DNA of 49,834 bases, from the sequence record OX638287; one strand, written 5' to 3'. Each line of letters opens with the position of its first letter. The stretch's first letter is position 1. This stretch comes from Escherichia phage UP30. The notes under the pieces were generated by a model. It ran no database searches. It saw only the letters and a program-made list of their open reading frames with translations, and was not told the DNA's origin. The position numbers were made by a program, and so were the translations under genes. Of this stretch, positions 529-48,216 are shown in pieces.

Positions 529-789
529 ATGAGCAAGATTAAGCATGACGCCCTGAAAGGTATTTTGATGCGACTGGAGCCGGGCGAGGCATTCCAGCTT
601 AACCCCGAAACGTTCGGATTCGTAGGCTTCTATCGGCTTGGCCTACAGATGAGTTCTCCAGCCGATGAGCTTGTCCGGTATGTGCGCAAGCAATTCGGTG
701 TCGAGATGATTAGTCTGGGCAAAGTGCAAGGCATCCAGCTATTTATCTTCAAGCCAAATAAGATTCGTTGCTTCACCCTGATGAAATAG
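529..789 (+). CDS. hypothetical protein (86 aa)
   Basis: ORF 523-789; second ATG at 529 has better spacing to AAGGAG (515-520); stop TAG is first triplet of dyad box. Confidence 0.5.
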   Translation: MSKIKHDALKGILMRLEPGEAFQLNPETFGFVGFYRLGLQMSSPADELVRYVRKQFGVEMISLGKVQGIQLFIFKPNKIRCFTLMK

Positions 790-835
790 CACTTTTTGTT
801 AAAACCGGATCGGGATAACCTGGTATAGTTATCCC
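787..835 (+). promoter_or_regulatory. early promoter module: dyad box + inverted repeat carrying TGgTATAGT
   Basis: tagcactttttgttaaaac 787-805; gggataacc...ggttatccc 812-835. Confidence 0.6.
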
Positions 836-860
836 ATCAACAACGAATGAGGAAGCGAAT

Positions 861-3720: not shown

Positions 3721-3869
3721 TGGTTACCTGGGTTTTGATTATCCTGATGAGCAATGGACCGGATCACGTATATATGAACAGCCAGCATTCATGCAATGAG
3801 GCTCGGGCAGTCATTGCAGATAACAAGCCGTTCGGATACGAAGTAAAAACTATGTGCGTTAAACGATAG
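3720..3869 (+). CDS. putative small protein (49 aa, MVTWVLIILMSNGPDH...)
   Basis: TAATG overlap with upstream stop, GAGGTG RBS, stop TAG embedded in box; hydrophobic N-terminus. Confidence 0.4.
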   Translation: MVTWVLIILMSNGPDHVYMNSQHSCNEARAVIADNKPFGYEVKTMCVKR

Positions 3870-3914
3870 CACGAATTGCTAAACCTTCCGCAAGGCCATT
3901 TGATATAGTGGCCT
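3867..3914 (+). promoter_or_regulatory. early promoter module
   Basis: tagcacgaattgctaaac; aaggccatTTGATATAGTggcctt. Confidence 0.6.
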
Positions 3915-3949
3915 TATTGAAGCAGGGCAACCAATCAGAGGAATCAGCT

Positions 3950-15784: not shown

Positions 15785-15812
15785 TTGACGCTTTAACAAA
15801 AAGTGCTATTAT
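15785..15812 (+). promoter_or_regulatory. strong sigma70-type promoter of capsid gene (TTGACG-16-TGcTATTAT) with inverted box in spacer
   Basis: -35 15785-15790, -10 15807-15812; box ttaacaaaaagtgctatta 15793-15811. Confidence 0.55.
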
Positions 15813-15816
15813 TGAA

Positions 15817-15845
15817 GCCGTGAACATAATCACGGCTTTTTTATT
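15817..15845 (+). terminator. hairpin + U-run in capsid gene 5' leader
   Basis: gccgtga-acataa-tcacggc then T6. Confidence 0.45.
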
Positions 15846-15863: not shown

Positions 15864-16823
15864 ATGGCTACTAAAAAATTTGATGAAGCAGACAAAAGCA
15901 ATGTCGAAATGTATCTGATCCAGGCTGGCGTAAAGCAGGATGCAGCAGCAACTATGGGTATCTGGACCGCTCAGGAACTACACCGCATCAAAAACCAGTC
16001 TTACGAAGAAGATTACCCTGTCGGCTCCGCGCTGCGAGTATTCCCGGTTACTACCGATCTTTCTCCGACTGACAAGACTTTCGAATACATGACCTTTGAT
16101 AAGGTTGGCACGGCTCAGATTATCGCGGACTACACCGACGACCTGCCGCTTGTTGATGCCCTGGGCACTTCTGAGTTCGGTAAAGTGTTCCGTTTGGGTA
16201 ACGCGTATCTGATCTCAATCGACGAAATCAAAGCGGGTCAGGCAACTGGTCGCCCACTGTCAACTCGTAAGGCAAGTGCATGTCAGTTAGCGCATGACCA
16301 ACTGGTTAACCGTCTGGTGTTCAAAGGTTCCGTGCCGCACAAGATCGTGTCCGTGTTCAATCATCCGAACATCACCAAAATTACCTCCGGTAAGTGGATG
16401 GATGGCGCAACTCAGAAACCGGAAACAGCAGAAGCTGAATTGACTCAGGCAATCGAAACCATCGAGACGATTACTCGCGGTCAGCATCGTGCAACCAACA
16501 TTCTGATCCCGCCGTCCATGCGTAAGGTATTGGCTATTCGTATGCCTGAGACTACCATGTCTTATCTGGACTACTTCAAGTCTCAGAATGCTGGTATCGA
16601 GATCGACTCTATCGCAGAGCTTGAAGATATCGACGGCGCGGGTACTAAAGGTGTGCTGGTTTACGAAAAGAATCCGATGAACATGTCCATCGAGATCCCG
16701 GAAGCATTCAACATGCTGCCAGCACAGCCGAAAGACTTGCACTTTAAAGTGCCTTGCACCTCTAAGTGTACTGGTCTTACAATTTATCGCCCGATGACTA
16801 TTGTCTTAATCACTGGCGTGTAA
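15864..16823 (+). CDS. major capsid protein (putative)
   Basis: 319 aa, strong promoter upstream and strong terminator downstream, position in head module. Confidence 0.65.
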   Translation: MATKKFDEADKSNVEMYLIQAGVKQDAAATMGIWTAQELHRIKNQSYEEDYPVGSALRVFPVTTDLSPTDKTFEYMTFDKVGTAQIIADYTDDLPLVDALGTSEFGKVFRLGNAYLISIDEIKAGQATGRPLSTRKASACQLAHDQLVNRLVFKGSVPHKIVSVFNHPNITKITSGKWMDGATQKPETAEAELTQAIETIETITRGQHRATNILIPPSMRKVLAIRMPETTMSYLDYFKSQNAGIEIDSIAELEDIDGAGTKGVLVYEKNPMNMSIEIPEAFNMLPAQPKDLHFKVPCTSKCTGLTIYRPMTIVLITGV

Positions 16824-19560: not shown

Positions 19561-19578
19561 TAACAAAAAGTGCTATTA
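19561..19578 (-). promoter_or_regulatory. dyad box, inverted relative to downstream tail chaperone gene
   Basis: taacaaaaagtgctatta; followed by CCAATCAGGAG leader. Confidence 0.45.
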
Positions 19579-19597
19579 ACCAATCAGGAGAAATATC

Positions 19598-25766: not shown

Positions 25767-28700
25767 ATGATTCAAAAAGTGATAAGCGGATCTAAGGGCG
25801 GCTCGTCTAAGCCTCATAATCCAGTTGAAATGGAAGATAACCTGATCTCAATTAACAAGATCAAGATCCTGTTAGCTATATCTGACGGCGAGATTGACGA
25901 AACATTCAGCCTCAAGCAACTGATGTTTAACTCGGTCCCGGTGCAAAACGAGGATGGATCATTCAACTTCGAAGGGGTAAAGGCAGAGTTCAGGCCGGGC
26001 ACGCAGACTCAGGAATACATCAAAGGCATGGAAGATAGCGCCAGTGAGGTAACTGTAAACCGTGAGGTTACGACCGATAATCCGTACACGATCGCAGTAA
26101 CCAATAAAACTCTGTCGGCAATCCGTATAAAAATGTTCATGCCTCGCGGAGTACGCATTGAAAACAATGGCGATAAAAACGGCGTTAGAGTTGAGTACGA
26201 AGTGCAGCAAGCGGTTGATGGGGGTTCGTTTGAGACGGTGCTCACTGACGTAATCGAAGGCAAAACAATGTCAGGTTACGACAGAAGTCGTCGCGTAAAC
26301 CTGCCGAACTTCAATAATCAGGTGATATTCAGAGTCGTTCGCAAAACTCCAGACTCTAACGATTCGAACGTTGTCGATGCAATCCAGGTGAGAAGCTATG
26401 CCGAGGTAATTGATGCCAAATTCCGTTACCCTCTGACTGGTCTTCTTTTTGTTGAGTTTGATTCGAAGATGTTCCCGAGCCAGTTACCTACGATCTCAAT
26501 TCGTAAGCGATGGAAGATTGTAAACGTTCCGTCTAACTATGATCCAGAATCACGAACCTATAACGGGAATTGGGATGGAACTTTTAAGAAGGCGTGGACG
26601 AATAACCCTGCCTGGGTGCTTTATGACCTGATGATTAATCAGCGCTATGGACTGGATCAGAAAGAGCTTGGAATCTCCGTAGATAAATGGGCGCTATATG
26701 AGGCCGCGCAATATTGCGATCAGATGGTCCCTGACGGGAAAGGCGGTACTGAGCCTCGGTATCTTTGCGACGTGATAATCCAGTCACAGACTGATGCTTA
26801 CAAAGTTATTCGAGATATTTGCTCAATCTTCCGTGGCATGAGTTTTTGGAATGGTGAGAGCATTTCTGTAATCATCGACAGACCGCGTGAGCCTGCGTAC
26901 ATCTTCACGAACGACAACGTTGTTAATGGTGACTTCTCCTATACTTTCGCAAGCGAAAAGAGTATGTACACGACGTGTAACGTGATGTTTGATGACGAAC
27001 AAAACATGTATCAACAGGATGTTGAGCCAGTATTCGATCGTGAGGCGACTCTACGGTTCGGTAACAACGTAACGAGCATTACAGCGATCGGATGCACTCG
27101 ACGCAGTGAGGCTAACCGTCGCGGTAGGTGGATTCTGAAAACCAACCTACGCAGCACCACGGTAAACTTCGCTACCGGGCTGGAGGGAATGATTCCGACC
27201 ATCGGGGATGTTGTAGCAATAGCTGACAACTTCTGGTCAAGTAACTTGACTATGAACCTATCAGGGCGATTGCTCGAAGTGTCTGGAAGTCAGATTTTCT
27301 TGCCGTTCCGTGTGGATGCTCGCGCAGGTGACTTTATTATCGTAAATAAGCCTGATGGCAAGCCCGTGAAGCGCACAATCTCAAGTGTTAGTGCGGATGG
27401 AAAGACCATAGAGATTAACATCGGCTTCGGCTTTCCTGTGAAGCCTAACACGGTGTTTGCAATTGACCGTACCGACCTTGCGTTACAGCAGTACGTCGTG
27501 ACTAAAATCGACAAGGGTGATGACGATGAGGAATTTACCTACAAAATCACTGCGGTCGAGTACGATCCTAACAAGTACGATGAGATTGATTATGGCGTGA
27601 ACATCGATGATAGACCTACAAGCATCGTTGAGCCTGACCAGATACCTAAACCGGAAAACGTGCAGGTGTCCTCAGAGTCGAGAATCGTCCAGGGGATGAG
27701 CGTAGAAACGATGATTGTTAGCTGGGATAAAGTGCCGTACGCAGTTTTCTATGACGTCCAGTGGCGAAAGGATAACGGCAACTGGCAGAACGTTCCGCAG
27801 ACGGCAAACAAAGAGGTTTACGTTGAAGGGATTTACGCTGGTAACTATCAGGTTCGCGTTCGATCTGTGGCTGGCTCCGGTACGACTTCAGGTTGGTCAA
27901 ATATCGTAGCGGCGACGTTGACAGGTAAGCAAGGTGAACCGGGTCGACCGATTAACCTTACGGCTACGGATGATGTTGTTTTTGGTATCCGTACAAAATG
28001 GGGGTTCTCTGAAGGTTCAGGCGATACTGCCTATACAGAGTTGCAACAGTCACCGGATGGAACGGTTGACAATGCAAGTTTACTCTCTCTGGTTCCGTAT
28101 CCGCAGCATGAGTATTATCACTCACCAATGCCGGGCGGGAATATCGTGTGGTATCGGGTAAGGACGGTTGACAGGATCGGTAACGTGTCGCAGTGGACTG
28201 ATTTTGTCAGAGGCATGGCATCAACGAACGTAGACGATATTATCGGTGATATTTCTGTTGATATCGAAAACTCGCCAGGTTACGAATGGCTTGTTGATAA
28301 TGCAACCGACAACGCAGCGCAGAACGCAGCGAACGCTGAAGCATCAATTGAAAACGCACTCGCTAACGATAGAGACGCGATCCACATGAAGAAGGAGAAC
28401 GGTAAACGAAAAGCCGAGTACACCAAATCTCTTAAACTGATTGCTGACGAGACAGAGGCGCGCGTGACGGCTGTTGAGCAATTGAAAGCTAGTTTTGGAG
28501 ATCAGATTAGCGCGAGCAATAGCGAATTGCGTGAGGTTATCGCAACTGAGACAGGTGCGCTATCTCGCGAGATTGACCAACTCAAGGCAGAGATTGGTGA
28601 TGATATTCAGGCAAGTTTGACCGATATCCGTGAAGCCATCGCGAACGAGACTGAGGCAAGAACGCAAGCTGACTTAACGTTAAGCGCGCGACTTGGGGAT

Positions 28701-29216
28701 AATGAGGCGGCACTTTCTCAAAAACTTGACTCGTGGAGTAACGCGGATTCGACTGGCGCAATGTACGGCGTCAAGCTGGGACTTAAGTATAATGGTCAGG
28801 AATACAGCGCAGGCATGGCTATGTCTCTGATTGGTTCTGGCGCGGTTGTTAAGGCTCAGATTCTTTTTGAGGCGTCACGATTTGCCATCATGACAGGAAT
28901 GAATGGTCAGACTCAGTATCCTTTCGTGGTTGAGAATGGTCAAGTTATCCTGAGTAGCGCAATCATCAAGGATGGATTTATTACTAACGCAATGATTGGT
29001 AACGCAATTCAGTCTAACAATTGGGATGGATATCAAGGGTGGCATATTAACAAGAATGGTGCAGCTTACTTTATGAACGCAACAGTAAGGGGTGCTTTGT
29101 ATGCAGATAACGGATCGTTTGCATTCAACGGAACAAACAACACGGTTCAGATAAACAATAACGGGATCACGGTTAACCTACCTAACGGGGGCCGAGTGGT
29201 TGTTGGTGTCTGGTAA
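25767..29216 (+). CDS. host specificity / central tail fibre protein (lambda gpJ-like, 1149 aa)
   Basis: Size and position after I; fibronectin-III-like region; heptad-repeat-rich C-terminal part. Confidence 0.85.
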   Translation: MIQKVISGSKGGSSKPHNPVEMEDNLISINKIKILLAISDGEIDETFSLKQLMFNSVPVQNEDGSFNFEGVKAEFRPGTQTQEYIKGMEDSASEVTVNREVTTDNPYTIAVTNKTLSAIRIKMFMPRGVRIENNGDKNGVRVEYEVQQAVDGGSFETVLTDVIEGKTMSGYDRSRRVNLPNFNNQVIFRVVRKTPDSNDSNVVDAIQVRSYAEVIDAKFRYPLTGLLFVEFDSKMFPSQLPTISIRKRWKIVNVPSNYDPESRTYNGNWDGTFKKAWTNNPAWVLYDLMINQRYGLDQKELGISVDKWALYEAAQYCDQMVPDGKGGTEPRYLCDVIIQSQTDAYKVIRDICSIFRGMSFWNGESISVIIDRPREPAYIFTNDNVVNGDFSYTFASEKSMYTTCNVMFDDEQNMYQQDVEPVFDREATLRFGNNVTSITAIGCTRRSEANRRGRWILKTNLRSTTVNFATGLEGMIPTIGDVVAIADNFWSSNLTMNLSGRLLEVSGSQIFLPFRVDARAGDFIIVNKPDGKPVKRTISSVSADGKTIEINIGFGFPVKPNTVFAIDRTDLALQQYVVTKIDKGDDDEEFTYKITAVEYDPNKYDEIDYGVNIDDRPTSIVEPDQIPKPENVQVSSESRIVQGMSVETMIVSWDKVPYAVFYDVQWRKDNGNWQNVPQTANKEVYVEGIYAGNYQVRVRSVAGSGTTSGWSNIVAATLTGKQGEPGRPINLTATDDVVFGIRTKWGFSEGSGDTAYTELQQSPDGTVDNASLLSLVPYPQHEYYHSPMPGGNIVWYRVRTVDRIGNVSQWTDFVRGMASTNVDDIIGDISVDIENSPGYEWLVDNATDNAAQNAANAEASIENALANDRDAIHMKKENGKRKAEYTKSLKLIADETEARVTAVEQLKASFGDQISASNSELREVIATETGALSREIDQLKAEIGDDIQASLTDIREAIANETEARTQADLTLSARLGDNEAALSQKLDSWSNADSTGAMYGVKLGLKYNGQEYSAGMAMSLIGSGAVVKAQILFEASRFAIMTGMNGQTQYPFVVENGQVILSSAIIKDGFITNAMIGNAIQSNNWDGYQGWHINKNGAAYFMNATVRGALYADNGSFAFNGTNNTVQINNNGITVNLPNGGRVVVGVW

Positions 29217-29220
29217 CAGA

Positions 29221-29246
29221 AAGGGGCCGATTGGCCCCTTTTTTTA
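29221..29246. terminator. bidirectional terminator between convergent J and cor operon
   Basis: ggggcc-gatt-ggcccc then T7. Confidence 0.7.
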
Positions 29247-30200
29247 ATACATGTTTGGAGTGAAAGGAATTGGCATTGAAATGTTTATGTTGAATGGGAA
29301 TTGAGCGCCGCTCTGAGTAGAATAGTTACCTACCCTCGTTCCTGGTGCGCTTCTAACGTTACCTCCGCTCATGCACACGCCCTTGTATCGGATGTTATTA
29401 TATCCACCTGTAACCCTGCATATTGTGCCAGTTCTCAGTATTGGGAAAAATCCACCGCACCACTGCCAGCCGTCATTTATCGCCATAGTCCCGCCGAGAA
29501 CGAAGGGGCGTCTAACGCTTGAGAAAACGATCTGACCAGCGGGATTGCTCATAGTAATTCCCGGTCCTGGAGGTGGTGGAGTGTTATTAAATATTACGAG
29601 TTGCACGTATACGCTCGCGCCAACGTCATCAATCCCGTTATAGTTTGCATCCCTACACCATATAGTATTTCCGTCAGATTCAAGTGTTACGTTTGGGTTA
29701 TCCCACATACCGAAAGGAACGCCCTGGACTGGCAATTGAGCCTGACCGTTAACCTGGATGCCTCCAACAAATGCGGCACTCATCAACCTTGCGTTATTCG
29801 GTATCGCTGCGAAGTTGGTTGAATCGTTGACAAGTATCCCCTGATTTCCTGCCTGAGCGGGGAGAATTTCGTAACAGTTGCCATAAAATCTCATCCTTCT
29901 TCCACCGTGACCGTTAAAATTCCCTACCGTTATTCGCCCGGTTGAATCATTAACCTTCTGAAAGCTGGTTAAATAATACACCTCAGGAATATAATCCATG
30001 TCGTCTATGTAGATGGACTGAGATGGAAGGCAAAAAGCAGTAGATCCAGGACTCATTTGCAGACCAAAATCAAAAACCGATCCCGATGAGTCAACGCCGT
30101 CCGCTTGTATTGGTCCGCACCATGACGGTGCGCGAAGCCCCGAGGTTATCTCCATTGCCGGACGACCGTCATTTAAGTTTATGTATATTCCTTGTCCCAT
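29244..30200 (-). CDS. hypothetical Gly/Asn-rich protein (about 318 aa), co-operonic with Cor-like lipoprotein
   Basis: ATG 30200 lies 2 nt after upstream stop (coupling); ends at bidirectional terminator. Confidence 0.55.
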   Translation of the reverse strand: MGQGIYINLNDGRPAMEITSGLRAPSWCGPIQADGVDSSGSVFDFGLQMSPGSTAFCLPSQSIYIDDMDYIPEVYYLTSFQKVNDSTGRITVGNFNGHGGRRMRFYGNCYEILPAQAGNQGILVNDSTNFAAIPNNARLMSAAFVGGIQVNGQAQLPVQGVPFGMWDNPNVTLESDGNTIWCRDANYNGIDDVGASVYVQLVIFNNTPPPPGPGITMSNPAGQIVFSSVRRPFVLGGTMAINDGWQWCGGFFPILRTGTICRVTGGYNNIRYKGVCMSGGNVRSAPGTRVGNYSTQSGAQFPFNINISMPIPFTPNMY

Positions 30201-30202
30201 AA

Positions 30203-30433
30203 TTACCACTCTTTAGTTTTGATTGACACCTTGCCGCTAAAGTTTCCCTGGTCGTCGTCTGATGACAGACCTTTGAATCGCATGTCGATTTCTCCAGCGG
30301 GAACATTCTGCCCGTCAACGAATCGCATCATGCAAGAACCGTACGCGTAAGTAACACAGTCGCCATTTTTAAGATTCTGAGCGCAACCAGTCAGGATGAA
30401 TGCAGAAGCGATAATGGTGATTAATTTTTTCAT
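30203..30433 (-). CDS. Cor-like lipoprotein (putative superinfection exclusion)
   Basis: 76 aa, signal peptide with lipobox LTGC, GAGGAC RBS, own sigma70-like promoter; name is from T1/phi80 context, not verified. Confidence 0.5.
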   Translation of the reverse strand: MKKLITIIASAFILTGCAQNLKNGDCVTYAYGSCMMRFVDGQNVPAGEIDMRFKGLSSDDDQGNFSGKVSIKTKEW

Positions 30434-30959: not shown

Positions 30960-32024
30960 ATGTTTAAAGTATTCACATCAAGCCAGCTTTCTAATGACGA
31001 GTATCATAGCAATGAAGGTTGGGCGGCAGAGTATGTAAGCGGATCTAGCCTTGCTGAAATCTATCAGACTTGTCCGGCTAACTGGAGATTCAAGAAGAAC
31101 GAAACGACTAAAGCGCTGGAGTTCGGTACTCAGTCGCATACAAACTTTGAGAGTAGCGATCTGTTTACTGCAACGTATGCGCGTTGTCCGTCTCCGGCAG
31201 AGTTCAAAGATCTGATTACGTCACAAGCCGCGCTGGCTGCAAAATTAAAATCTTTCGGCCTGAAAGGTACATCCGGTAAGCAGTACCCGGACCTCATCAA
31301 AATGATGGTTGATTGCGGTGAAGATCTCAATGTTCAATATCTGATTGAACTGATTGCTGAAGCTGAGGCGCGTGCTGAAGGAAAGCAACTGGTTGACGCT
31401 GATAAATATGATGCCTGTATGAAGATGAGAGCCATCCTTGAGCAAAATCCCGATCATGAAGCGTGCATCAATAGCGAGACGGCCCAGCGTGAGATCTCAA
31501 TCTTCGGTGAGATATCCGGCGTAAAGGTTAAAGTTCGACTTGACCATTTGGACTATAAAGAGAATGTTCCAGGTCGTGTGCTGACTGGTTACGATGAGAA
31601 TGGCGATCCGGTATTCGAAGACGTGATTTTTCCTGAAGCACTGATTATCACCGACTTCAAAACAACTATGAGCGCTAACCCGTTAGAGTTCCCGAGACTG
31701 GCATACAATCACGGCTATTACCTGAAAATGGCATTGCAGCACGACCTGCTGCGACGTGCAATCCAGGCTGGCGCTTTTGAGGGTAACTTCCCGGAAGATA
31801 TCCCGATCGTAGTTCGATTACTGGCGCAGGAGAAAAAAGAGCCTTACATCGCCCTTGCTTACCGCATGACTATGGAGCAAATCAGGATCGGGCGTAGTCA
31901 GTATGTTAGCGTTGTCCACACCTACAAGGCTTGTTCTGAGATGGACGTTTGGCCCGGATACGCTGGCGACGCAAGCGAGATCGAACTTGAAACGCCGTCA
32001 TGGGTACGCTATCAAAACAAGTAA
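30960..32024 (+). CDS. recombination exonuclease (PD-(D/E)xK, YqaJ/RecE-like)
   Basis: ITDFKT motif; first gene of exo-Erf-SSB module; canonical promoter upstream. Confidence 0.55.
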   Translation: MFKVFTSSQLSNDEYHSNEGWAAEYVSGSSLAEIYQTCPANWRFKKNETTKALEFGTQSHTNFESSDLFTATYARCPSPAEFKDLITSQAALAAKLKSFGLKGTSGKQYPDLIKMMVDCGEDLNVQYLIELIAEAEARAEGKQLVDADKYDACMKMRAILEQNPDHEACINSETAQREISIFGEISGVKVKVRLDHLDYKENVPGRVLTGYDENGDPVFEDVIFPEALIITDFKTTMSANPLEFPRLAYNHGYYLKMALQHDLLRRAIQAGAFEGNFPEDIPIVVRLLAQEKKEPYIALAYRMTMEQIRIGRSQYVSVVHTYKACSEMDVWPGYAGDASEIELETPSWVRYQNK

Positions 32025-32026
32025 AC

Positions 32027-32074
32027 GGCACAAATAGCTAAACAAGTAATTAATGAGGTGTTATAATGCACCTC
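32027..32074 (+). promoter_or_regulatory. degenerate promoter module upstream of erf
   Basis: ggcacaaatagctaaac; hairpin gaggtgTTATAATgcacctc. Confidence 0.45.
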
Positions 32075-32098
32075 GTACACCAATCAGGAGAAGTTAAG

Positions 32099-32746
32099 AT
32101 GCAATTATCACCAGAAACCAACGAAATCCTTCCTGCACTGTTTAACGCTCGCAACAAATTCGCTAAAGCAAAGAAGGATGCTAAAAACAATCACCTGAAA
32201 AATTCATACGCAACGCTTGATGCAATGATGGCGGCAGTAAGTCCTGCGTTAACCGACAACGATATCATGATTCTGCAATCAATGCTGGACACCAGTACAG
32301 AAACGACATTCCATCTTGAGACTATGCTGATTCACAAATCAGGGCAGTGGGCCAAATTCTTCATGATGATGCCGATTGCAAAACGAGATCCGCAAGGCGT
32401 AGGTTCTGCAATGACGTATGCGCGACGTTACTCTCTCGCGGCGGCGCTTGGAATTAGCCAGAGTGATGACGACGCGCAGCTTGCGGTGAAATCTGTCAAG
32501 GATTGGAAAAAAGAACTTGATTCGTGTGAAGATATCGAATCACTGAAAGAGGTATGGGCTAACGCTTACCGCCAGACGGACACGGCAAGCAAGTCAATCA
32601 TTCAGGATCACTACAACGCACTGAAGGCTAAGTTTGAGATCGGAAAGGCTCGCGGCATTCGCCCGGCGCAACCGGAACAGAAAAAACAGGTTGAAGCAAC
32701 AAGCGCGAAACCTGTACAATCTCAATCAATCACCAATTTCGAATAA
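32099..32746 (+). CDS. erf: Erf-family single-strand annealing protein
   Basis: YATLDA and MTYARRYS motifs; ATG 32099 after CCAATCAGGAG leader. Confidence 0.65.
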   Translation: MQLSPETNEILPALFNARNKFAKAKKDAKNNHLKNSYATLDAMMAAVSPALTDNDIMILQSMLDTSTETTFHLETMLIHKSGQWAKFFMMMPIAKRDPQGVGSAMTYARRYSLAAALGISQSDDDAQLAVKSVKDWKKELDSCEDIESLKEVWANAYRQTDTASKSIIQDHYNALKAKFEIGKARGIRPAQPEQKKQVEATSAKPVQSQSITNFE

Positions 32747-32793: not shown

Positions 32794-33207
32794 ATGCATA
32801 TTATCACTGGCGAGATCCGAAAAGAACCTAAGATTCTTGAACGTAACGGAGGCAATACTTATATTATTGAACTGGCAGAGAGTTACAAGCCGCGTGATGG
32901 CGATCGAGAATACACCAACTATACATTCTTTTTCAGCGATGGTGGGAAGCCCGGACTTGCTGATTGGTATCGTGAAGCGTTCCAGGTTGGTCGCGTCGTA
33001 TCAGTATCGTGCGAGACGTTGAAGATCTCATCCCGCGAGCACAACGGAACGGTTTACAATTCATTGCAGGCGGCTGATTTTCCTAAGTTGATATTCAGCC
33101 AACGAGGACAAAGCAACCAACAACGAGCGCCACAGCAACAACAGCGAACGCAATCACATCAACAGCCAAATCCTCAATCAACTTTCGACGATGATATCCC
33201 GTTCTAA
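32794..33207 (+). CDS. ssb: single-stranded DNA-binding protein
   Basis: Gln/Pro-rich tail ending DDDIPF; position after Erf. Confidence 0.8.
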   Translation: MHIITGEIRKEPKILERNGGNTYIIELAESYKPRDGDREYTNYTFFFSDGGKPGLADWYREAFQVGRVVSVSCETLKISSREHNGTVYNSLQAADFPKLIFSQRGQSNQQRAPQQQQRTQSHQQPNPQSTFDDDIPF

Positions 33208-33208
33208 C

Positions 33209-33236
33209 AAAAATCCCCGCATTGCGGGGATTTTAT
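33209..33236. terminator. bidirectional terminator between ssb and tail fibre gene
   Basis: aaaatccccgc-att-gcggggatttt. Confidence 0.7.
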
Positions 33237-35020
33237 CATTTGGACTTCAATGTTTTTATCTCTTCTTGTAACTCTTCAACTTTCTTCATTGTATCCTGCA
33301 AAGCTCTCATAGTGTCAAGCAATAAAGGAGTTGTATCAAGCTCAAGCCTTTCAACTTTTGGCCCGTTTAGCTCGTGGCTCTCATAAACCCTTCTCTTAAC
33401 ATATAGATTGTCGATCTCTTCTATCTCCTGAGCTATAACACCTCGCCTTACCCTTTCTTGCTCATCATCGTTAAATATAAAGTTCCTAAATCTCATTGAT
33501 TTTATGTTGTTGTATGCAATGCTTGATTCATCATCCTTTATGCTGTGCTTTATATTTCTGTCAGATGCCGGAATCTGTTGGAAACTTCCAGCCCCTTGCG
33601 GTCCAGCGTAAGATATTTGCCCTGAAGCCATAAACCTGAAATGCATTTGCAGACCAATATTGCCTGCTCCATCCCTATCTTGAGCGCCTACTGATATTTG
33701 TGCCCTGGGCCATTCAGGATTACCCGTAGTCATCATGCCAAATGCTACGCCGCCAACGTATCCCTGACCTCTGGTGTCGCACGATCCAGCAATAAGTGAT
33801 TGATAGTTTTCAGCGCCACTATCGGCGGTGTAAGCACCAGCCTGAAAACACGTCTCAGACCACATCTGGTTGTAACCCATATTTCCTTTATTACATAAAA
33901 GCTGAGAAGCCCTGAATCTATTATTAGTCTCGAAGTAGTTTGAACCCTCATAAAACAATAAAGTTCCAGCATAACCATCACTTCCATTACCTTTTCTGAC
34001 GTAAAGCCCTGGCACAGAAAGTCCATCCGGTGAAATAATCATAAGTGATGAAAGTATGGACTGACTACCCCAGCTAGAACCGTCCCACGAGTTCCTTCCT
34101 GCACCTATAGGACCCGTGGTGTTAATAGTAAGAAAGTTAACAGCATCATTTTCACCTAACCCAATATTTTTTCTTGACTCTTTTTTATCCTCAAGGCCAG
34201 CTAGATTGCCATCCTTAGTTAAAAGATTTTCAGCATTGATGCTATTGGCTGCGTCTTTCGCTTCTTGAGCGCTCACCGCTGCCGCATCTTTTGAGCTAAC
34301 AGCATCGTCACGCGCTGCCTGAGCGTCGTTTTTTGCAGAGGTCGCCGTTTGTGCTGCCGTTTGAGCGTCATTAACGTAACCTGACAGATCGCCTTTTGCG
34401 TCATTAATTGCCTGAATCGCCGCCGCTTCTTCTGAGTCAATGTGAGAAATGACAGATGATTCCTTTGATCCTATATCAGTTATGGCCTGATCCTTCGCCG
34501 CATTGATGCTACCGACAGCACCGTCAACAATCTGCTGTGTCTGATTCTTGATTGAGTTAGTTTCATCACGTGCGGCGTTAGCTGCGTCACGAGCTAATTC
34601 AGCCTGGTTTTGTGCGGCTTGAGAGTCTGATTTAGCCTGGTTCACCTCAGCAACTATTTGCTCAAGTTTATTCATATCAAGCTGATTTATCAGGTCTATA
34701 GCTGCTGCGATCTCAGTCTCCTTGCTTTGATAGTATCTAAGCGTCTCAGCAACGTTTTGAGCCAAGCCGTTAACAGTCAACGAATCGTTAAGCAGGATCA
34801 CATACTTACCGTCAGCGGCAGTCTGACCATCTGTAGAGATAGCCTTTAACTCAGTATCGCTCACGATATCGCTAATTACAGCCAGCTTAATCGGTTGCTC
34901 CAGAAATACGATGGTTGCACCGACTCGAATAAGAGCAAGCTGGTCTTTCCATTTTGTATCGGTTCCGCGAACCGTACCGTCTGCATCCATTGATGCTGTG
35001 CCGCGTCTATATAAAGCCAT
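33236..35020 (-). CDS. tail fibre with C-terminal intramolecular chaperone (S74-type) domain
   Basis: Coiled-coil Ala/Gln-rich shaft; C-terminal ~120 aa with GVIAQEIEEI-type motif and coiled-coil end. Confidence 0.7.
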   Translation of the reverse strand: MALYRRGTASMDADGTVRGTDTKWKDQLALIRVGATIVFLEQPIKLAVISDIVSDTELKAISTDGQTAADGKYVILLNDSLTVNGLAQNVAETLRYYQSKETEIAAAIDLINQLDMNKLEQIVAEVNQAKSDSQAAQNQAELARDAANAARDETNSIKNQTQQIVDGAVGSINAAKDQAITDIGSKESSVISHIDSEEAAAIQAINDAKGDLSGYVNDAQTAAQTATSAKNDAQAARDDAVSSKDAAAVSAQEAKDAANSINAENLLTKDGNLAGLEDKKESRKNIGLGENDAVNFLTINTTGPIGAGRNSWDGSSWGSQSILSSLMIISPDGLSVPGLYVRKGNGSDGYAGTLLFYEGSNYFETNNRFRASQLLCNKGNMGYNQMWSETCFQAGAYTADSGAENYQSLIAGSCDTRGQGYVGGVAFGMMTTGNPEWPRAQISVGAQDRDGAGNIGLQMHFRFMASGQISYAGPQGAGSFQQIPASDRNIKHSIKDDESSIAYNNIKSMRFRNFIFNDDEQERVRRGVIAQEIEEIDNLYVKRRVYESHELNGPKVERLELDTTPLLLDTMRALQDTMKKVEELQEEIKTLKSK

Positions 35021-35042
35021 AGTATAAACTCCTTAAGTAAAT

Positions 35043-35092
35043 AGCATGAATTGCTAAACACTGATTTTATCATTGCGCTAATGGTCTTGCAA
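35043..35092 (-). promoter_or_regulatory. tail fibre promoter (TTGCAA-17-TGaTAAAAT) with dyad box at the start site
   Basis: -35 35087-35092, -10 35064-35069 on minus; box 35043-35061. Confidence 0.5.
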
Positions 35093-35098
35093 CGGGCA

Positions 35099-35122
35099 AT
35101 AAAAAACCGCCCGAAGGCGGTT
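35099..35122 (-). terminator. intrinsic terminator after primase (minus strand)
   Basis: ccgcc-cgaa-ggcgg with A6 on plus strand = U-run on minus. Confidence 0.6.
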
Positions 35123-36056
35123 AGAGTAGGTCACTTGCTGAGAATAATTTGGCTTGCATTCCTGAACGGTATCCTCCAGGGTTAGGGATGATTATTTTTA
35201 ACTGCCTGTCGTCTGCCATATACAAAGTTTCTTTGTCAGATGGTTCGCACGCCACCCTTACCTCCCGATCCCCTTTGTATCTGTACGCAACCATTTCTAG
35301 GTTTTCAGGAGTAAAGCAGGCCCATACCTCTTGCTTTGTATGAAATGCAATATGTTGAGCATCAATCCAGTTTAGACACAAGTAGATCGCCTTCTCAGTT
35401 TTACCAGTCACGGCAACCGAGCAACTTGTGTATTTCTTCGCGTAAAATGATTCCCTTCCCTCTTCATCAATAATCAAAATATTGCAAAACTCGTCATCAA
35501 GCCCATCGTCATGCACAAGTTGACACGGGATAGTGTGAAATACTGACTCACCGCCATCCTCGCGACGTTTTACGCCTACGTCGAATGATTCAGTGGGTAG
35601 TGACTCAAACATACTTAGAGGCGTGTTTACGCGCTTCTCTGTGCGCTCCATAACTTTCATCACTGCATCATGGTCTGCCATCATAACATTTACGCCAGCT
35701 ACCGGAGTGCGGCGTGCTTTTTTGTTTGCCTTGACAATGTACTCCTGCGGAACCTTACCGAGAAATCTCCCCAGGATGTTTATGCATTCACTGTACGGCA
35801 TACCAGTTAATTTCATCAACCAGCCGATCCCGGAGTCGTTGCCGCATGAGTTGCAGATCGCGCCGCCGTCGCCCGGAGTATTCAAGTTATCAGTCCAACG
35901 AAAACGGTCCTTGCCGCCGCAGTTAGGGCAAGGTTGGTGCTTCTTGTTGAAAACCTCGTTAGGCAATCCGCAAACAGACTGGAATGCATCACGCCATAAC
36001 CCCTTCATATACGGCAATACGTCCTCTTTCTGAAACATCATAAATTCTTCGTTCAC
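35121..36056 (-). CDS. DNA primase (zinc-binding, putative)
   Basis: CPNCGGKDRFRW...CNSC zinc-finger motif; GTG 36056 or ATG 36041, start uncertain. Confidence 0.55.
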   Translation of the reverse strand: MNEEFMMFQKEDVLPYMKGLWRDAFQSVCGLPNEVFNKKHQPCPNCGGKDRFRWTDNLNTPGDGGAICNSCGNDSGIGWLMKLTGMPYSECINILGRFLGKVPQEYIVKANKKARRTPVAGVNVMMADHDAVMKVMERTEKRVNTPLSMFESLPTESFDVGVKRREDGGESVFHTIPCQLVHDDGLDDEFCNILIIDEEGRESFYAKKYTSCSVAVTGKTEKAIYLCLNWIDAQHIAFHTKQEVWACFTPENLEMVAYRYKGDREVRVACEPSDKETLYMADDRQLKIIIPNPGGYRSGMQAKLFSASDLL

Positions 36057-36077: not shown

Positions 36078-36132
36078 CGCGTAGAAGGATGTTACCCCGC
36101 TACGCGTCGTTTGTTTTAACTAAAAATGCTAT
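36078..36132 (-). promoter_or_regulatory. dyad box plus downstream hairpin/U-run upstream of primase
   Basis: Box 36114-36132 (minus sense tagcatttttagttaaaac); stem acgcgtag/ctacgcgt 36078-36110. Confidence 0.45.
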
Positions 36133-36568
36133 TGGTCGTTCCGATATCTTCCTTCTTCACCACTCGCATAAACTTCTTGTTCTTGCATCGCTTCTCAAGG
36201 CACTTGCCGTTACCGTCAAACTTGAGGTCGAATCGCAACCATGCCGCGCGGTATCCTTTACACCCCTGGCGACGGTAAGCGCGATGTGCAGCTTCAGCAC
36301 CTTGCCACGAAATCATATTGCGCTCTTTCCAGCCTTGCACGGTCTGATTACTAACTTTCAGAGCCTTTGCGCAGGCCGCCGGGCCACCATAATATTCGAT
36401 AAGAGCATCAAGTCGCGCTCGCAGTCCGGCGCGTGTTTCTTCTTTATGGATATAGAATCCGCAGCGTTGGCGAGGCTTTTTATCTTTACCGCGTCGGGTT
36501 CCATTGTTACCATTGATGTGACGTTTATCGATTTCACCAGTTGACTCGGCAATTCGTTGCATATTCAT
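36116..36568 (-). CDS. DNA-binding protein with Cro-like HTH and possible N-terminal HNH-like motif
   Basis: ACAKALKVSNQTVQGW helix-turn-helix; RHINGNNG resembles an HNH core; AGGAG RBS. Confidence 0.45.
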   Translation of the reverse strand: MNMQRIAESTGEIDKRHINGNNGTRRGKDKKPRQRCGFYIHKEETRAGLRARLDALIEYYGGPAACAKALKVSNQTVQGWKERNMISWQGAEAAHRAYRRQGCKGYRAAWLRFDLKFDGNGKCLEKRCKNKKFMRVVKKEDIGTTNSIFS

Positions 36569-36581
36569 CTTGATTCTCCTG

Positions 36582-36648
36582 TAGCACTTTTTGCTAAAAA
36601 CGTTTACTGTATGCCGTGTATTATAGCGTAAACGTTACAACGATTCAA
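36582..36648. promoter_or_regulatory. bidirectional promoter region sharing one palindromic -10 (TATTATAG)
   Basis: Box 36582-36601; plus -10 tattat 36619-36624; minus TATAAT 36620-36625 with -35 TTGAAT 36643-36648. Confidence 0.5.
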
Positions 36649-36661
36649 AGGATTAATAGCC

Positions 36662-38680
36662 GTGACAATGAACATCAAAAAGCAGATTGCATTACTTGGC
36701 GAGGACTACATAAAACGCACTCAGGAGCGATTCACTGTTGGTGAGGTCGTTCCGTATCCGTATCAGGTTGTTGCTTATGCTGAGATAGCGAAGCGCCTGT
36801 CAAATTATGATCATCCATTCTTCGTTAAAGCGTCAGTATCTGCGGGTAAGACAATCATTTTTGCTATGGTTGCAAAACAGTGTCAGAAAATGGGGTTAAA
36901 AATGCTTGTGCTGGCACGCCAGGGTGAGATTGTCGATCAGGATAGCGAAGAGATCGACAACTTCGGTGTGACTAACTCTATCTTCTCAGCGTCACTTGGA
37001 ATAAAATCTTGCTACTTCCCGATCGTGGTTGGCTCTGAGGGTACTGTTGCAAACGGCCTCAATAATGAGTTGGCTGATTTTGTCCCGCATGTAATAGGGA
37101 TCGACGAATGTCACCAGGTGGATTGGGAAGACCTCGCGCAAGCAATCGAAGGAAAGGAAACGATTGAGCAGATGAGGGGGGAGAAAGGGAAAGTTATCAT
37201 GGAAGGGGAGATTCCTCTGATTGGTAATGATGGTAAGCCTCTTCTCGGAACTAAGCGAAGCCAGTACACGATCGTTATCATGGAGATGATGCGTCGCTGT
37301 AAAGAGGTTCACGGGCATGACCTAAGAATATTTGGTATGACGGGATCTGAATTTCGCGGCGTTGTTCCTATTCTTGTTGAGAACCCAAAGGCGTTAGGAT
37401 TCTGGCGTGAGCGCGTTACTGATATTGACACAAACTACCTCATTGAGTTTGGTTCTGTCGTTCCGACGATATTCGGTTCAACTGACGGGGTTCATTACGA
37501 TCTGGATAAGTTCAAGGCGTCGAGCGAGGACGGCGTGCAGGACTTTACAGAGAAAGATATGAAGGCGATGGAAGATGAAATCCTTCATGACAAATCTCTG
37601 ACTCAGCGAATCATGCAAATGGTCGCCAAAAAGGCTGAAGAACGCAACGCTGTTTTGATTACATGTGCCGGGGTTCGTCACTGTAAAGAGGCGGCGGCGG
37701 CACTTCCTCCGGGAAGCACCTATGCAATCATCACTGGAGATACAGACACCAAAACTCGCAAGAAGATTCTGGACGATGTGAGGGCCGGGAAGATTAAATA
37801 CACCTTTCAGGTAATGGCTCTCACGACTGGCGTTAACGTTCCAAATTGGGATTTCAGCGTCATACTTCGTAAGATAGGATCACTCACGCTGTTGATTCAA
37901 CTTTTGGGTAGGGGTATGCGACTGCTTAAATCATGGCAGGTAGCTGAAGGAATGGTCAAGCAAGATCATCTTGTATGGGATTTCGCTGGCACCATGGATG
38001 AGTTAGGCCAACTTTATTTCGATCCGATACTTGAGCAGGCTCAATTCCAGAAGCGTTTTGAAAACGGCAAAGACCCGAAAACGTGTCCGAAGTGTGGTTG
38101 CGTAAATAGCTTCTACGCTCGCCGATGCGTTAACGTTATCGACGGTGAGCGTTGTGATCATTTCTGGACTTCTCAGATTTGCGAGGACCAGGTGGATGAG
38201 CGTACCGGGAAAATCATTGTTAAAGGATGTGGTGCAGAGAATGACGTTGTTGCTCGCGTCTGCCGTTGCTGCGATGTTTCGCTTGTCGATCCTAACCTGA
38301 AGTTGTCAGGTAAAGCGTACACCAAGAATGACTGGTACGAGGTCAAGAATTTTGAGGTAACTCTAACCAAAAACCAAAAGGGCGTTATATACAAATACAC
38401 ACTGATTAACGATGATGGCGATGAGTTCAAGGCGTATGAAAAATTCTTCCCTGAGTCCGACTCTAAGATTTGCGGTACGCTATGGAAAACGAAGGGTGTA
38501 TTGCCTCATGTGTCAGATCCTAAAATGCGTCGCTACTTTATCGGAATGAAGAACGCCATCAAGATCGTGCAGTACTCGCATCATATCGCTCATCCGGTAC
38601 GTGTCACACACCGACGCAACCAGAAGAAGGAAGATATTATTTCACGTAAAGATTTCGGTATGGAGGATATCCCACAATGA
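36662..38680 (+). CDS. SF2 helicase with C-terminal zinc ribbon
   Basis: Walker A SAGKT, DECH box, CPKCGC...C-rich C-terminus; start may be ATG 36668. Confidence 0.75.
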   Translation: MTMNIKKQIALLGEDYIKRTQERFTVGEVVPYPYQVVAYAEIAKRLSNYDHPFFVKASVSAGKTIIFAMVAKQCQKMGLKMLVLARQGEIVDQDSEEIDNFGVTNSIFSASLGIKSCYFPIVVGSEGTVANGLNNELADFVPHVIGIDECHQVDWEDLAQAIEGKETIEQMRGEKGKVIMEGEIPLIGNDGKPLLGTKRSQYTIVIMEMMRRCKEVHGHDLRIFGMTGSEFRGVVPILVENPKALGFWRERVTDIDTNYLIEFGSVVPTIFGSTDGVHYDLDKFKASSEDGVQDFTEKDMKAMEDEILHDKSLTQRIMQMVAKKAEERNAVLITCAGVRHCKEAAAALPPGSTYAIITGDTDTKTRKKILDDVRAGKIKYTFQVMALTTGVNVPNWDFSVILRKIGSLTLLIQLLGRGMRLLKSWQVAEGMVKQDHLVWDFAGTMDELGQLYFDPILEQAQFQKRFENGKDPKTCPKCGCVNSFYARRCVNVIDGERCDHFWTSQICEDQVDERTGKIIVKGCGAENDVVARVCRCCDVSLVDPNLKLSGKAYTKNDWYEVKNFEVTLTKNQKGVIYKYTLINDDGDEFKAYEKFFPESDSKICGTLWKTKGVLPHVSDPKMRRYFIGMKNAIKIVQYSHHIAHPVRVTHRRNQKKEDIISRKDFGMEDIPQ

Positions 38681-47806: not shown

Positions 47807-47831
47807 GATTCTTTCCTCATTTGCTGTTGAT

Positions 47832-47880
47832 GGGATGACTATACCAGCCATCCCGGATGCGCGTTTAGCAATTCGTGCTA
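47832..47880 (-). promoter_or_regulatory. promoter module (minus strand)
   Basis: Minus-sense tagcacgaattgctaaac; gggatggcTGGTATAGTcatccc. Confidence 0.55.
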
Positions 47881-48216
47881 TTAAGCAATATCGAACTCAG
47901 CGGCATATGCTTCCTTGAAGCCAGCTTCACGCATGGTGCGCTTGCTGATTTTGCGCTGGAATTTGTACTGGCTGTTAGGCATAACCCACCAGAAGCAGGC
48001 AGTTTCACGAACGATTTCATATTTACCGTAACGGGTGAAGGTGTCGCGTTCCATATCCGGCTGATTTACACAGGTCAGGAATTTAGCTGCCTTGTCTTCA
48101 GTTTTGATTTCTTCCCACACGAAGGAATCCATACCGTTAACCTTGCAAGCTACCATGATGTACTCAACGCCGTTTTCGATTTTGATGATTTCGTTACCGC
48201 GATTTTCGTATTTCAT
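47881..48216 (-). CDS. hypothetical protein (111 aa)
   Basis: ORF after promoter module; stop overlaps next box. Confidence 0.55.
   Translation of the reverse strand: MKYENRGNEIIKIENGVEYIMVACKVNGMDSFVWEEIKTEDKAAKFLTCVNQPDMERDTFTRYGKYEIVRETACFWWVMPNSQYKFQRKISKRTMREAGFKEAYAAEFDIA

Follow-up and report, generated by a model that had tools for sequence, protein, structure and literature searches.

In Escherichia phage UP30, a leftward gene flanked by recombination genes and the primase gene, about 4 kb from the central fibre gene J, encodes a protein that had been predicted from the DNA to be a tail fibre with a self-cleaving end, carried in an exchangeable host-range cassette. What is this protein, how is its gene expressed, and which part of the locus is actually exchanged? 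Within the window (the whole stretch of 49,834 nucleotides analysed here; features in Table 1), the full explanation that is very probably correct is a Tunavirus lateral fibre composed of an anchor, a shaft, an exchangeable tip and a self-removing S74 chaperone, with a promoter of its own.

Table 1. Coordinates of the fibre gene, its domains, its flanking signals and its neighbours in the window.
Feature	Position	Strand	Residues, remarks and basis
Exonuclease	30960-32024	+	neighbour, recombination side
Erf recombinase	32066-32746	+	neighbour, recombination side
SSB-like gene	32794-33207	+	neighbour, recombination side
Bidirectional intrinsic terminator	33210..33234	.	occupies the 28 nt that separate the stop codons of the convergent SSB-like and fibre genes
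Lateral tail fibre gene	33236..35020	-	594 aa, ATG start, 64.1 kDa precursor; ORF list
Peptidase_S74 intramolecular chaperone	33239..33565	-	aa 486-594, 13.0 kDa; Pfam, fold, alignments
Catalytic motif SDRNIK	33548..33565	-	Ser486 33563-33565, Lys491 33548-33550
Distal Gly-rich tip, predicted receptor-binding	33566..34153	-	aa 290-485; composition, allele replacement
Shaft-tip junction motif KDGNLAGLEDKKESRKNIGLG	34154..34216	-	aa 269-289; conserved residues, breakpoints
Ala-rich alpha-helical shaft	34217..34705	-	aa 106-268; AlphaFold2 helix, composition
N-terminal anchor domain	34706..35020	-	aa 1-105; sole part conserved family-wide
Shine-Dalgarno AAGGAG	35029..35034	-	8 nt before ATG; sequence
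Dyad box TAGCAATTCATGCTA (TAGCA-ATTCA-TGCTA)	35042..35056	.	reversed copy of a genome-wide 21-nt repeat
Sigma-70-type promoter-like site	35064..35092	-	consensus scan, 9/12 matches with TG
Intrinsic terminator after primase gene	35099..35122	-	7-bp GC-rich stem and T-run
Primase	35121-36056	-	neighbour, other side
Regulator, Cro-like	36116-36568	-	150 aa; beyond primase
Helicase	36662-38680	+	beyond regulator
Central fibre J	25767-29216	+	

Identity and Genomic Context

The product of the open reading frame has the same sequence as the UP30 protein annotated as tail fiber protein (100% identity), matches PHROG tail-fibre families (best E = 1.5e-98) and shares about 93% identity with the fibres of Tunavirus (T1-like, Drexlerviridae); at the DNA level, the gene is 92.7% identical to Shigella phage pSf-2. 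The gene order around it is that of T1, S2_02, JMPW1, ADB-2, ULIM2, BrunoManser and IME347, and the T1 gene at the same locus is ST26. Both the fibre identity and the leftward placement were therefore correctly read from the sequence. As is typical of the lateral-fibre locus of the Drexlerviridae, the gene sits between the recombination and the primase-helicase genes on the strand opposite the tail module, a position and orientation common to T1 ST26, JakobBernoulli Bas07 Gp36 and the fibres of BrunoManser, IME347, JMPW1 and ADB-2. [quoted passage not shown] Published descriptions of Bas07 (Drexlerviridae) and Bas85 (Dhillonvirus) give a coiled coil, a T5-like tip and an IMC. A search of the literature on UP30 returned nothing on its fibre protein. 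The reading frame is thus a side tail fibre gene of the usual kind for a T1-like coliphage, annotated before, real and not new; its architecture is already published for the Drexlerviridae, and the fibre follows that plan. The scientific stake in the fibre itself is small.

Transcription of the Fibre Gene

The gene would form a separate transcription unit, with terminators on both sides and an extended -10 promoter of its own. On the primase side, the terminator (-11.8 kcal/mol, z = -3.2) shows compensatory stem changes in other genera and separates the fibre gene from the upstream operon. Beyond the fibre stop codon (TGA, 33236-33238), the bidirectional terminator has folding energies of -17.7 and -17.8 kcal/mol (z = -4.0 and -4.5) for its two strands, and the T1 annotation has a terminator pair at the equivalent place.

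The promoter-like site combines a -35 element TTGCAA (35092-35087), a 17-nt spacer and the extended -10 TGaTAAAAT (35072-35064). Promoter-like sites in the region show no excess over shuffled sequence in the consensus scan, and for this reason it is conservation that serves as evidence for the promoter. The TTGC of the -35 and CACAATGnTAAAAT are conserved in Tunavirus, Sertoctavirus and Badaguanvirus, whose spacers differ; in two genera the -35 reads TTGCCG and is degenerate. The terminator, the promoter-like site and the reversed dyad box upstream of the gene are all conserved across the three genera. Transcription is predicted to start 6-8 nt past the -10, at 35058-35056, which is the edge of the dyad box or just inside it. 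The original prediction of a promoter starting within the box thus holds for the promoter-like site and for the box at the expected start, with the start position itself remaining a prediction.

Alternatively, the fibre gene may lack a promoter and depend on transcripts that start at the divergent promoter ahead of the regulator-primase operon and read through, the leader box then being a relic or acting at the RNA level. The fibre gene has the same orientation as the regulator and primase genes, a promoter closer to the consensus (TTGAAT-17-TATAAT) is present at 36648-36620, and the chance-level count of promoter-like sites points the same way. Moreover, a reversed box just 5' of the Shine-Dalgarno sequence, as in two other structural-gene leaders, would fit an RNA-level role. 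This route is nevertheless unlikely given the canonical terminator that compensatory changes maintain between the two genes, and given an extended -10 CACAATGnTAAAAT without any change in eight phages from three genera, next to a spacer that is free to vary. A dedicated promoter therefore remains the preferred reading.

Anchor and Shaft

The fibre protein is most likely a homotrimer whose conserved N-terminal residues, some 105 in number, would dock on the tail tip. In tblastn searches, matches were found in 1174 phage records and were mostly confined to residues 1 to about 130; several hundred Klebsiella and Escherichia phage records match the anchor end alone. A conserved N-terminal anchor of about 100-130 residues is characteristic of Drexlerviridae fibres, for which N-terminal-only conservation and module exchange have likewise been described (Maffei 2021, including S1C Fig). 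The anchor is also homologous to that of the cluster I receptor-binding proteins of Webervirus, the Klebsiella Drexlerviridae (55-60% identity over residues 1-130, tblastn), and it differs from the anchors of T5-like fibres.

The shaft is 21% Ala, and AlphaFold2 models a single long helix over residues 116-259 (pLDDT about 75-85). Its hydrophobic periodicity is 3.6 residues, with modest power. An elongated N-terminal coiled coil is described for the related Bas07 fibre, and the shaft is probably a trimeric coiled coil, in line with the shaft originally proposed. At the junction that follows, N272 is invariant and K269 and L273 are nearly so among 36 homologues.

The S74 Chaperone End

A C-terminus resembling the S74 chaperones, with a catalytic serine region, had been proposed, and alignment to known domains of this type bears this out. 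The Pfam family Peptidase_S74 (PF13884) is matched at residues 486-536 with 33.5 bits (E = 5.1e-8), above the curated gathering cut-off of 22 bits, and the identical protein P0001 has a precomputed assignment to it. The domain forms the last 109 of the 594 residues of a protein of the tail-fibre families. Among the 120 best homologues, about 113 carry PF13884, but many share just the N-terminal ~48-51%.

The SDRNIK motif aligns with SGIEYK of DT57C LtfA and SDARLK of T5 pb1, so that a serine followed by a lysine five residues on stands in register with Ser1264/Lys1269 of T5 pb1, the proven dyad (PMC4690869). Profile matches include DT57C LtfA (E = 5.6e-34), the MyRF ICA, the S16 fibre and the GA-1 appendage. 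The modelled domain has the solved chaperone fold, mixed alpha/beta and then a terminal trimerising helix, with 3gw6, 3gud and 7dc3 as top structural matches and 4uw8 also found, and AlphaFold2 places a terminal coiled-coil helix at residues 563-593. The T5 catalytic site also includes Arg1250 and Asp1239, whose equivalents could not be placed in the UP30 monomer models.

Several known systems share this end. K1F endoNF, the GA-1 neck appendage and the eukaryotic MyRF ICA belong to the same family and have the same fold, but the UP30 chaperone is joined to a small non-enzymatic tip, whereas endoNF and MyRF have a sialidase and a transcription-factor domain instead. T5 pb1 and DT57C LtfA (PDB 8hqz chain d) likewise end in an S74 chaperone with a Ser-x4-Lys dyad. 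As in the T5-like L-shaped fibre, a single polypeptide requires no separate chaperone gene, and in UP30 none is present, the terminator lying directly 3' of the fibre stop codon. At 594 residues, the UP30 fibre is much shorter than the T5-like fibres of 1076 and 1396 residues, and its similarity to pb1 is detectable in the SDxxxK region alone.

In the proposed mechanism, the last 109 residues would template trimerisation of the tip and then remove themselves: Lys491 would activate Ser486, the Ala485-Ser486 bond would be cut, and the 64.1 kDa precursor would yield a mature subunit of 51.1 kDa. This predicted size of about 51 kDa provides a target for proteomics. The domain might instead stay uncleaved and cap the mature fibre structurally. 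Such a reading could draw on the whole-protein phmmer match to the nearest solved relative, which is restricted to residues 464-594, and on the C-terminal profile, which hhalign aligns to T5 pb1 at the SDxxxK motif only weakly (E = 0.016). It is nonetheless highly improbable. Ser486 and Lys491 are invariant in the 36 homologues and in 12 divergent C-termini, and across those 36, with their widely different tips, only three other residues are invariant as well; this is the pattern of catalysis rather than of a passive cap. Webervirus receptor-binding proteins that carry the ICA, relatives within the Drexlerviridae, were observed to self-cleave and to run predominantly as the cleaved form. In T5, the uncleaved form fails to block adsorption, from which it was suggested that the chaperone masks the binding site (PMC4690869). 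Self-removal thus remains the favoured fate of the UP30 domain.

The Distal Tip

The 196-residue tip (17% Gly) would bind a surface glycan, O-antigen or LPS, in reversible primary adsorption, leaving irreversible binding to a terminal porin receptor to the J-associated system. Glycan binding in reversible adsorption is also presumed for the T5-like L-shaped fibre. Contigs of 44-45 kb and Dhillonvirus Bas83 carry tips of 60-61% identity. Two AlphaFold2 models were obtained, of the full-length monomer (36 homologues) and of residues 262-594 (26 homologues). The tip has a pLDDT below 50 in both, and fold searches are accordingly informative for the chaperone domain only. The homologue search with residues 262-594 yielded 24 proteins, too few for a deeper alignment. 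A pb1-type ("T5-like") tip, as in the "bullet" domain ahead of the pb1 cleavage site (residues 970-1263), is not claimed here, given such models and the lack of sequence similarity to pb1, for which neither BLASTP nor hhalign with the full-length profile gave a significant match to the UP30 fibre.

An enzymatic role, as tailspike or depolymerase, is extremely unlikely for the protein: residues 1-171 do match the solved Klebsiella phage capsule depolymerases 7vyv/7lzj (E = 7e-43), with which the anchor is common, and some alleles at the locus have pectate-lyase-type domains (e.g., PF12708 in P0080), but a Pfam search of residues 290-485 detected no enzymatic domain in this short, Gly-rich segment, and Webervirus alleles with an IMC and without a lyase domain bind O-antigen and do not degrade it. 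These cluster I proteins, for which self-cleavage and O-antigen binding have been shown, combine a non-depolymerase tip with an ICA domain, as the binding fibre of UP30 would, and differ from it in host genus and tip.

Exchange among Relatives

Comparison of the locus across relatives, which had been proposed as a check, reveals a constant position and a distal part that is swapped at mapped breakpoints. DNA homology to other Tunavirinae genera ends at 34705, the anchor edge (residue ~106), and with T1, JMPW1 and ADB-2 it extends as far as 34167-34202, corresponding to residues 273-285; breakpoints fall at residues ~106, ~146 or 273-285, and homology returns at 33213-33270. The tip is replaced in T1, JMPW1, ADB-2 and ULIM2, whose fibres (728 residues in T1) carry a different tip-chaperone allele, whereas the Shigella-propagated phages pSf-2, Sfin-1 to -6 and Shfl1 have the UP30 allele at about 90-95%.

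Exchange affects the stretch from the breakpoint to the downstream terminator, the distal part of the gene, rather than the gene as a whole. The proposed cassette therefore stands for this part, while separation from J is a fixed trait of the family rather than the cause of exchangeability. Host range would vary by recombination that swaps the tip together with its chaperone and leaves the anchor and the flanking genes constant. The breakpoints at residues 106, 146 and 273-285, together with the terminator, mark swap sites for a tip-plus-chaperone module, which could be used in engineering to retarget primary adsorption with the flanking replication genes untouched.

The Dyad Box of the Leader

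Directly next to the predicted start lies a reversed copy of the dyad box, which would span about +1 to +15 of the transcript and ends 7 nt upstream of the Shine-Dalgarno sequence. In the window, 24 sites with at most one mismatch were found against 1.2 expected, which is not chance. The dyad repeat was published earlier for phage TLS, and its copy in this leader ties the fibre gene to a putative regulatory repeat of T1-like phages. The leader copy is conserved in eight phages and faces the other way from the promoter-associated copies, roughly 17, found elsewhere in the genome; the major capsid gene and a tail-chaperone gene likewise have reversed copies in their leaders, and the leader of the Cro-like gene carries the box too.

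Two promoter assignments for the box were discarded. Its own TGcTATTTA as an extended -10 would place the start within the Shine-Dalgarno sequence or beyond it, and its hexamer is missing the final T. A rightward class-A promoter, antisense into the primase gene, was rejected because the + strand has no conserved -10 at 22 nt downstream, the sequence there being the variable spacer.

The leader box is probably a binding site for a regulator. Rather speculatively, it could be the operator for one phage-encoded dimeric regulator that times the structural genes. The candidate would be the Cro-like protein, activating the roughly 17 early/middle extended -10 promoters from a fixed position with the box centred near -42, and blocking or delaying transcription from start sites that coincide with the box or precede it. 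If true, this would give the repeat of the T1/TLS literature a function. At the RNA level, RNAalifold applied to the 17 promoter-associated sites returned the 5-bp box hairpin only, without covariation. Separately, a hand-named hairpin in the spacer/-10 region has moderate support.

Identity and Genomic Setting of the Fibre Gene

The leftward open reading frame of 594 codons, on which the original prediction was built, appears in the ORF list of the window exactly as described. Its product matches phrog_1980 over the full protein length (E = 1.5e-98), which bears out the assignment as a tail fibre. A protein listed in the database as 'tail fiber protein [Escherichia phage UP30]' has the same sequence (100% identity), and further proteins of 594 aa with 88-96% identity include the fibres of Shigella phages Shfl1, Sfin-3, and phiL and of Escherichia phage LHE71. 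The best records at the DNA level are Tunavirus genomes (Drexlerviridae), e.g., Shigella phage pSf-2 (92.7%). The window is therefore the genome of a T1-like phage, whose annotated lateral tail fibre this gene encodes.

The gene order agrees with the proposed placement between the recombination and primase genes. T1 (NC_005833) carries its fibre gene, annotated as ST26 in the reference record, at the same place and in the same orientation, as do S2_02, JMPW1, ADB-2, ULIM2, BrunoManser, and IME347. Maffei et al. 2021 described this family locus as flanked by conserved recombination and primase/helicase genes, with conservation inside the fibre gene limited to its 5' end.

Directly 3' of the central fibre gene J, a 321-aa ORF (29244-30209, - strand) belongs to a PHROG 'membrane protein' family (E = 2.6e-126). 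T1 has ST32, ST31, and cor at this position downstream of J, where a terminal-receptor and superinfection-exclusion locus has been located (Maffei et al. 2021); UP30 therefore probably differs from T1 there.

Features of the lateral fibre gene, its product, and its surroundings
Feature	Position	Strand	Remarks
Central fibre J	25767-29216	+	~4 kb from lateral fibre gene
Exonuclease	30960-32024	+
Erf recombinase	32066-32746	+
SSB-like gene	32794-33207	+
Bidirectional terminator	33210-33234	both	gap between convergent stop codons; -17.7 and -17.8 kcal/mol
Lateral tail fibre	33236-35020	-	594 aa
N-terminal anchor	aa 1-105		conserved end
Shaft	aa 116-259		one continuous predicted helix, pLDDT ~80 (AlphaFold2)
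Shaft-tip junction	aa 269-289		conserved motif KDGNLAGLEDKKESRKNIGLG; N272 invariant
Distal tip	aa 290-485		Gly-rich, 17% Gly
S74 intramolecular chaperone	aa 486-594		C-terminal end of fibre
Shine-Dalgarno	8 nt upstream of fibre ATG	-	AAGGAG
Dyad box of fibre gene	35056-35042		TAGCA-ATTCA-TGCTA; about 6-7 nt past -10; then AAGGAG, ATG
Extended -10	35072-35064	-	TGaTAAAAT; promoter-like
-35	35092-35087	-	TTGCAA; then 17-nt spacer
Terminator closing primase gene	35122-35099	-	canonical; -11.8 kcal/mol, z = -3.2
Primase	35121-36056	-
Cro-like regulator	36116-36568	-	150 aa
Helicase	36662-38680	+
Dyad box sites 1-12	787, 1526, 2580, 3867, 5441, 5961, 7256, 9090, 15794, 19561, 21265, 35042
Dyad box sites 13-24	36582, 39091, 40114, 40446, 42102, 45733, 46233, 46750, 47866, 48283, 49212, 49417

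Protein Architecture and the C-Terminal Chaperone

Solved depolymerases of Klebsiella phages (7vyv, 7lzj) align with residues 1-171 (E = 7e-43), and tblastn hits to the N-terminal end alone come from several hundred records of Klebsiella, Escherichia, and Salmonella phages. The anchor is presumably the particle-binding end, as in these structures. The shaft contains 21% alanine and has a hydrophobic periodicity of 3.6 residues, a modest signal; its predicted helix fits the coiled coil known from the related Bas07 fibre, which has been described with an 'elongated N-terminal coiled coil', in keeping with the shaft originally proposed. The tip was modeled with pLDDT < 50 in both AlphaFold2 runs. 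Comparison with T5 pb1 by BLASTP and by hhalign with the full-length profile gave no significant match, which leaves a pb1-type tip as no more than a possibility.

The anticipated S74-type C-terminus, the core of the original prediction, stood up in all tests applied. It is recognized by Pfam Peptidase_S74 (PF13884) at residues 486-536, with 33.5 bits against a gathering score of 22. A profile query built from 12 divergent C-termini retrieved the L-shaped fibre LtfA of DT57C (8hqz, E = 5.6e-34), the intramolecular chaperone (ICA) domain of MyRF (1.1e-13), the long tail fibre of S16 (5.6e-11), 8jov (8.9e-8), and the neck appendage chaperone of GA-1 (2.9e-4). The domain starts at S486-D-R-N-I-K491. 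Ser486 and Lys491 are among the only five invariant columns in 36 homologues, and are also invariant in the 12 C-termini of just 21-38% mutual identity. S-G-I-E-Y-K of DT57C LtfA aligns with this stretch, while S1264-D-A-R-L-K1269 of T5 pb1 is in register with it in a weak alignment. The region of the catalytic serine, whose absence would have spoken against the domain, is thus present. In T5, Ser1264 and Lys1269 form the dyad cutting the Thr1263-Ser1264 bond; cleavage is blocked by Ser1264Ala, and adsorption is not inhibited by the uncleaved form (PMC4690869).

By analogy with T5, the predicted cleavage site of the fibre is located between Ala485 and Ser486, with computed masses of 64.1 kDa for the precursor and of 51.1 and 13.0 kDa for the predicted mature subunit and fragment, respectively. 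In Webervirus, likewise a genus of Drexlerviridae, receptor-binding proteins with an ICA domain have been observed to undergo processing. No separate fibre-chaperone gene lies 3' of the fibre, as its stop codon abuts the terminator.

Exchange of the Distal Module

The fibre locus of the window was compared at the DNA level with those of T1, JMPW1, ADB-2, ULIM2, BrunoManser, and IME347. T1 and JMPW1 show 88-90% homology from the helicase side through nt 1-854 of the fibre gene; homology ends at 34166-34167 (aa 285) and resumes at 33234-33270. The break is located at 34202 (aa 273) in ADB-2, at 34583 (aa 146) in ULIM2, and at 34705 (aa 106) in BrunoManser and IME347, which belong to other genera. 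Anchor, leader, and neighboring genes are constant across the compared relatives. Judged from these breakpoints in aligned sequences, what is replaced is the distal stretch of the gene, in every case together with the chaperone, with the terminator as right boundary. The exchangeable host-range cassette of the original prediction is thereby upheld in substance, although only the distal part and not the whole gene is exchanged. The separation of the gene from J, which had suggested the cassette, is a fixed family trait and not the reason for the exchange.

Among the 120 best homologues, about 113 carry PF13884, and many, with lengths of 487-831 aa, are 85-96% identical over the N-terminal ~48-51% only. 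The tip-plus-chaperone module has counterparts of 60-61% identity in Dhillonvirus Bas83 and on contigs of 44-45 kb; several further proteins, two of which are encoded on contigs of 109-122 kb, share 27-47% identity with it. The fibres of Bas83-85 target the O16 O-antigen. This target hints at a glycan receptor for the UP30 fibre, but 61% identity is too low to transfer the specificity of Bas83.

By the diagnostic features that were tested, the fibre belongs both to the S74 chaperone family and to the lateral tail fibres of Drexlerviridae. Architecture, locus, and variability have already been published, and the databases contain an annotation of the protein; the original observation is real, was read correctly, and is ordinary. 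What novelty remains concerns the regulatory repeat touching the gene, not the fibre itself.

Transcription Signals of the Fibre Gene

A promoter scan of the fibre upstream region gave no excess of promoter-like sites over shuffled sequence, so the scan by itself is no proof. In an intergenic alignment of eight phages from three genera, whose flanks are only ~71% identical, TTGC of the -35, CACAATGnTAAAAT, and TTAGCAAnnnGTGCTATTTACTT are kept, and the stem of the primase-fibre terminator shows compensatory changes, whereas the promoter spacer and the 6 nt separating the -10 from the box vary freely. Such conserved blocks with variable spacers are the pattern expected of functional elements. 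The start is predicted 6-8 nt past the -10, at 35058-35056, i.e., on the box margin or immediately within it. Given this conservation and spacing, the proposed start within the box is a fair prediction rather than a demonstrated fact.

In T1, terminators are likewise annotated in the gap downstream of the fibre gene. The small T1 ORF ST25 (34791-34934) spans the fibre promoter, box, and Shine-Dalgarno sequence and extends across the fibre start; since conserved noncoding signals occupy that stretch, ST25 probably does not represent a gene.

The Dyad Box across the Genome

With one mismatch allowed per 15-nt site, the dyad box TAGCA-N5-TGCTA occurs 24 times in the window versus 1.2 expected (~20-fold excess) and 21 times in T1 versus 1.4 expected. 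The 21-nt repeat aaATAGCACnnnTTGnTAAAA described in phage TLS is the corresponding element; the TLS paper names the function of the repeat as an open question (PMC11447400).

About 17 copies are co-oriented with local transcription, e.g., 781-860 (+), 3861-3940 (+), and 47807-47886 (-). In a gap-free alignment of these copies, a hexamer TAtagT follows at a fixed 22 nt downstream; its A2 and T6 do not vary, and TGn stands before it at most sites. From this pattern, the co-oriented sites can be read as extended -10 promoters in which the box is centred at about -42, as is typical for class II activators. No description of the 22-nt spacing was found in the consulted passages of the TLS paper (PMC11447400).

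The 17 co-oriented sites also display a hairpin tendency in the spacer/-10 region (columns 32-57 of their alignment); the stem sequence varies between sites, and some pairs are G-U compatible. RNAalifold did not find this hairpin unaided in the alignment; for the hand-named structure, 70.6% of cells are paired versus 61.1% in shuffles, with a covariation score of 0.395 versus 0.263 (reached by 0/500 shuffles).

The fibre copy has the opposite orientation to the co-oriented ones and lies downstream of its -10. The major capsid gene (15794) and a tail-chaperone gene (19561) also have reversed boxes in their leaders, and T1 has reversed boxes at the equivalent structural-gene leaders (15071 and 18835). 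In the capsid leader (15794-15845; gene 15864-16823) and in the leader 19561-19597 (ORF start ~19598), the reversed box is found just 5' of the Shine-Dalgarno sequence; within the former, it is followed by a terminator-like hairpin and U-run (gaagccgtgaacataatcacggcttttttatt).

These arrangements suggest that one factor may read the box differently by position. A candidate for the box-binding factor is the 150-aa regulator, which falls into a PHROG 'transcriptional regulator' family (E = 2e-76) and gives a weak P22_Cro helix-turn-helix match below the Pfam cut-off. The leader of its own gene carries a box (36582-36596) between a promoter-like site (36648-36620) and the start codon; relative to the divergent helicase gene, this box occupies the promoter position.
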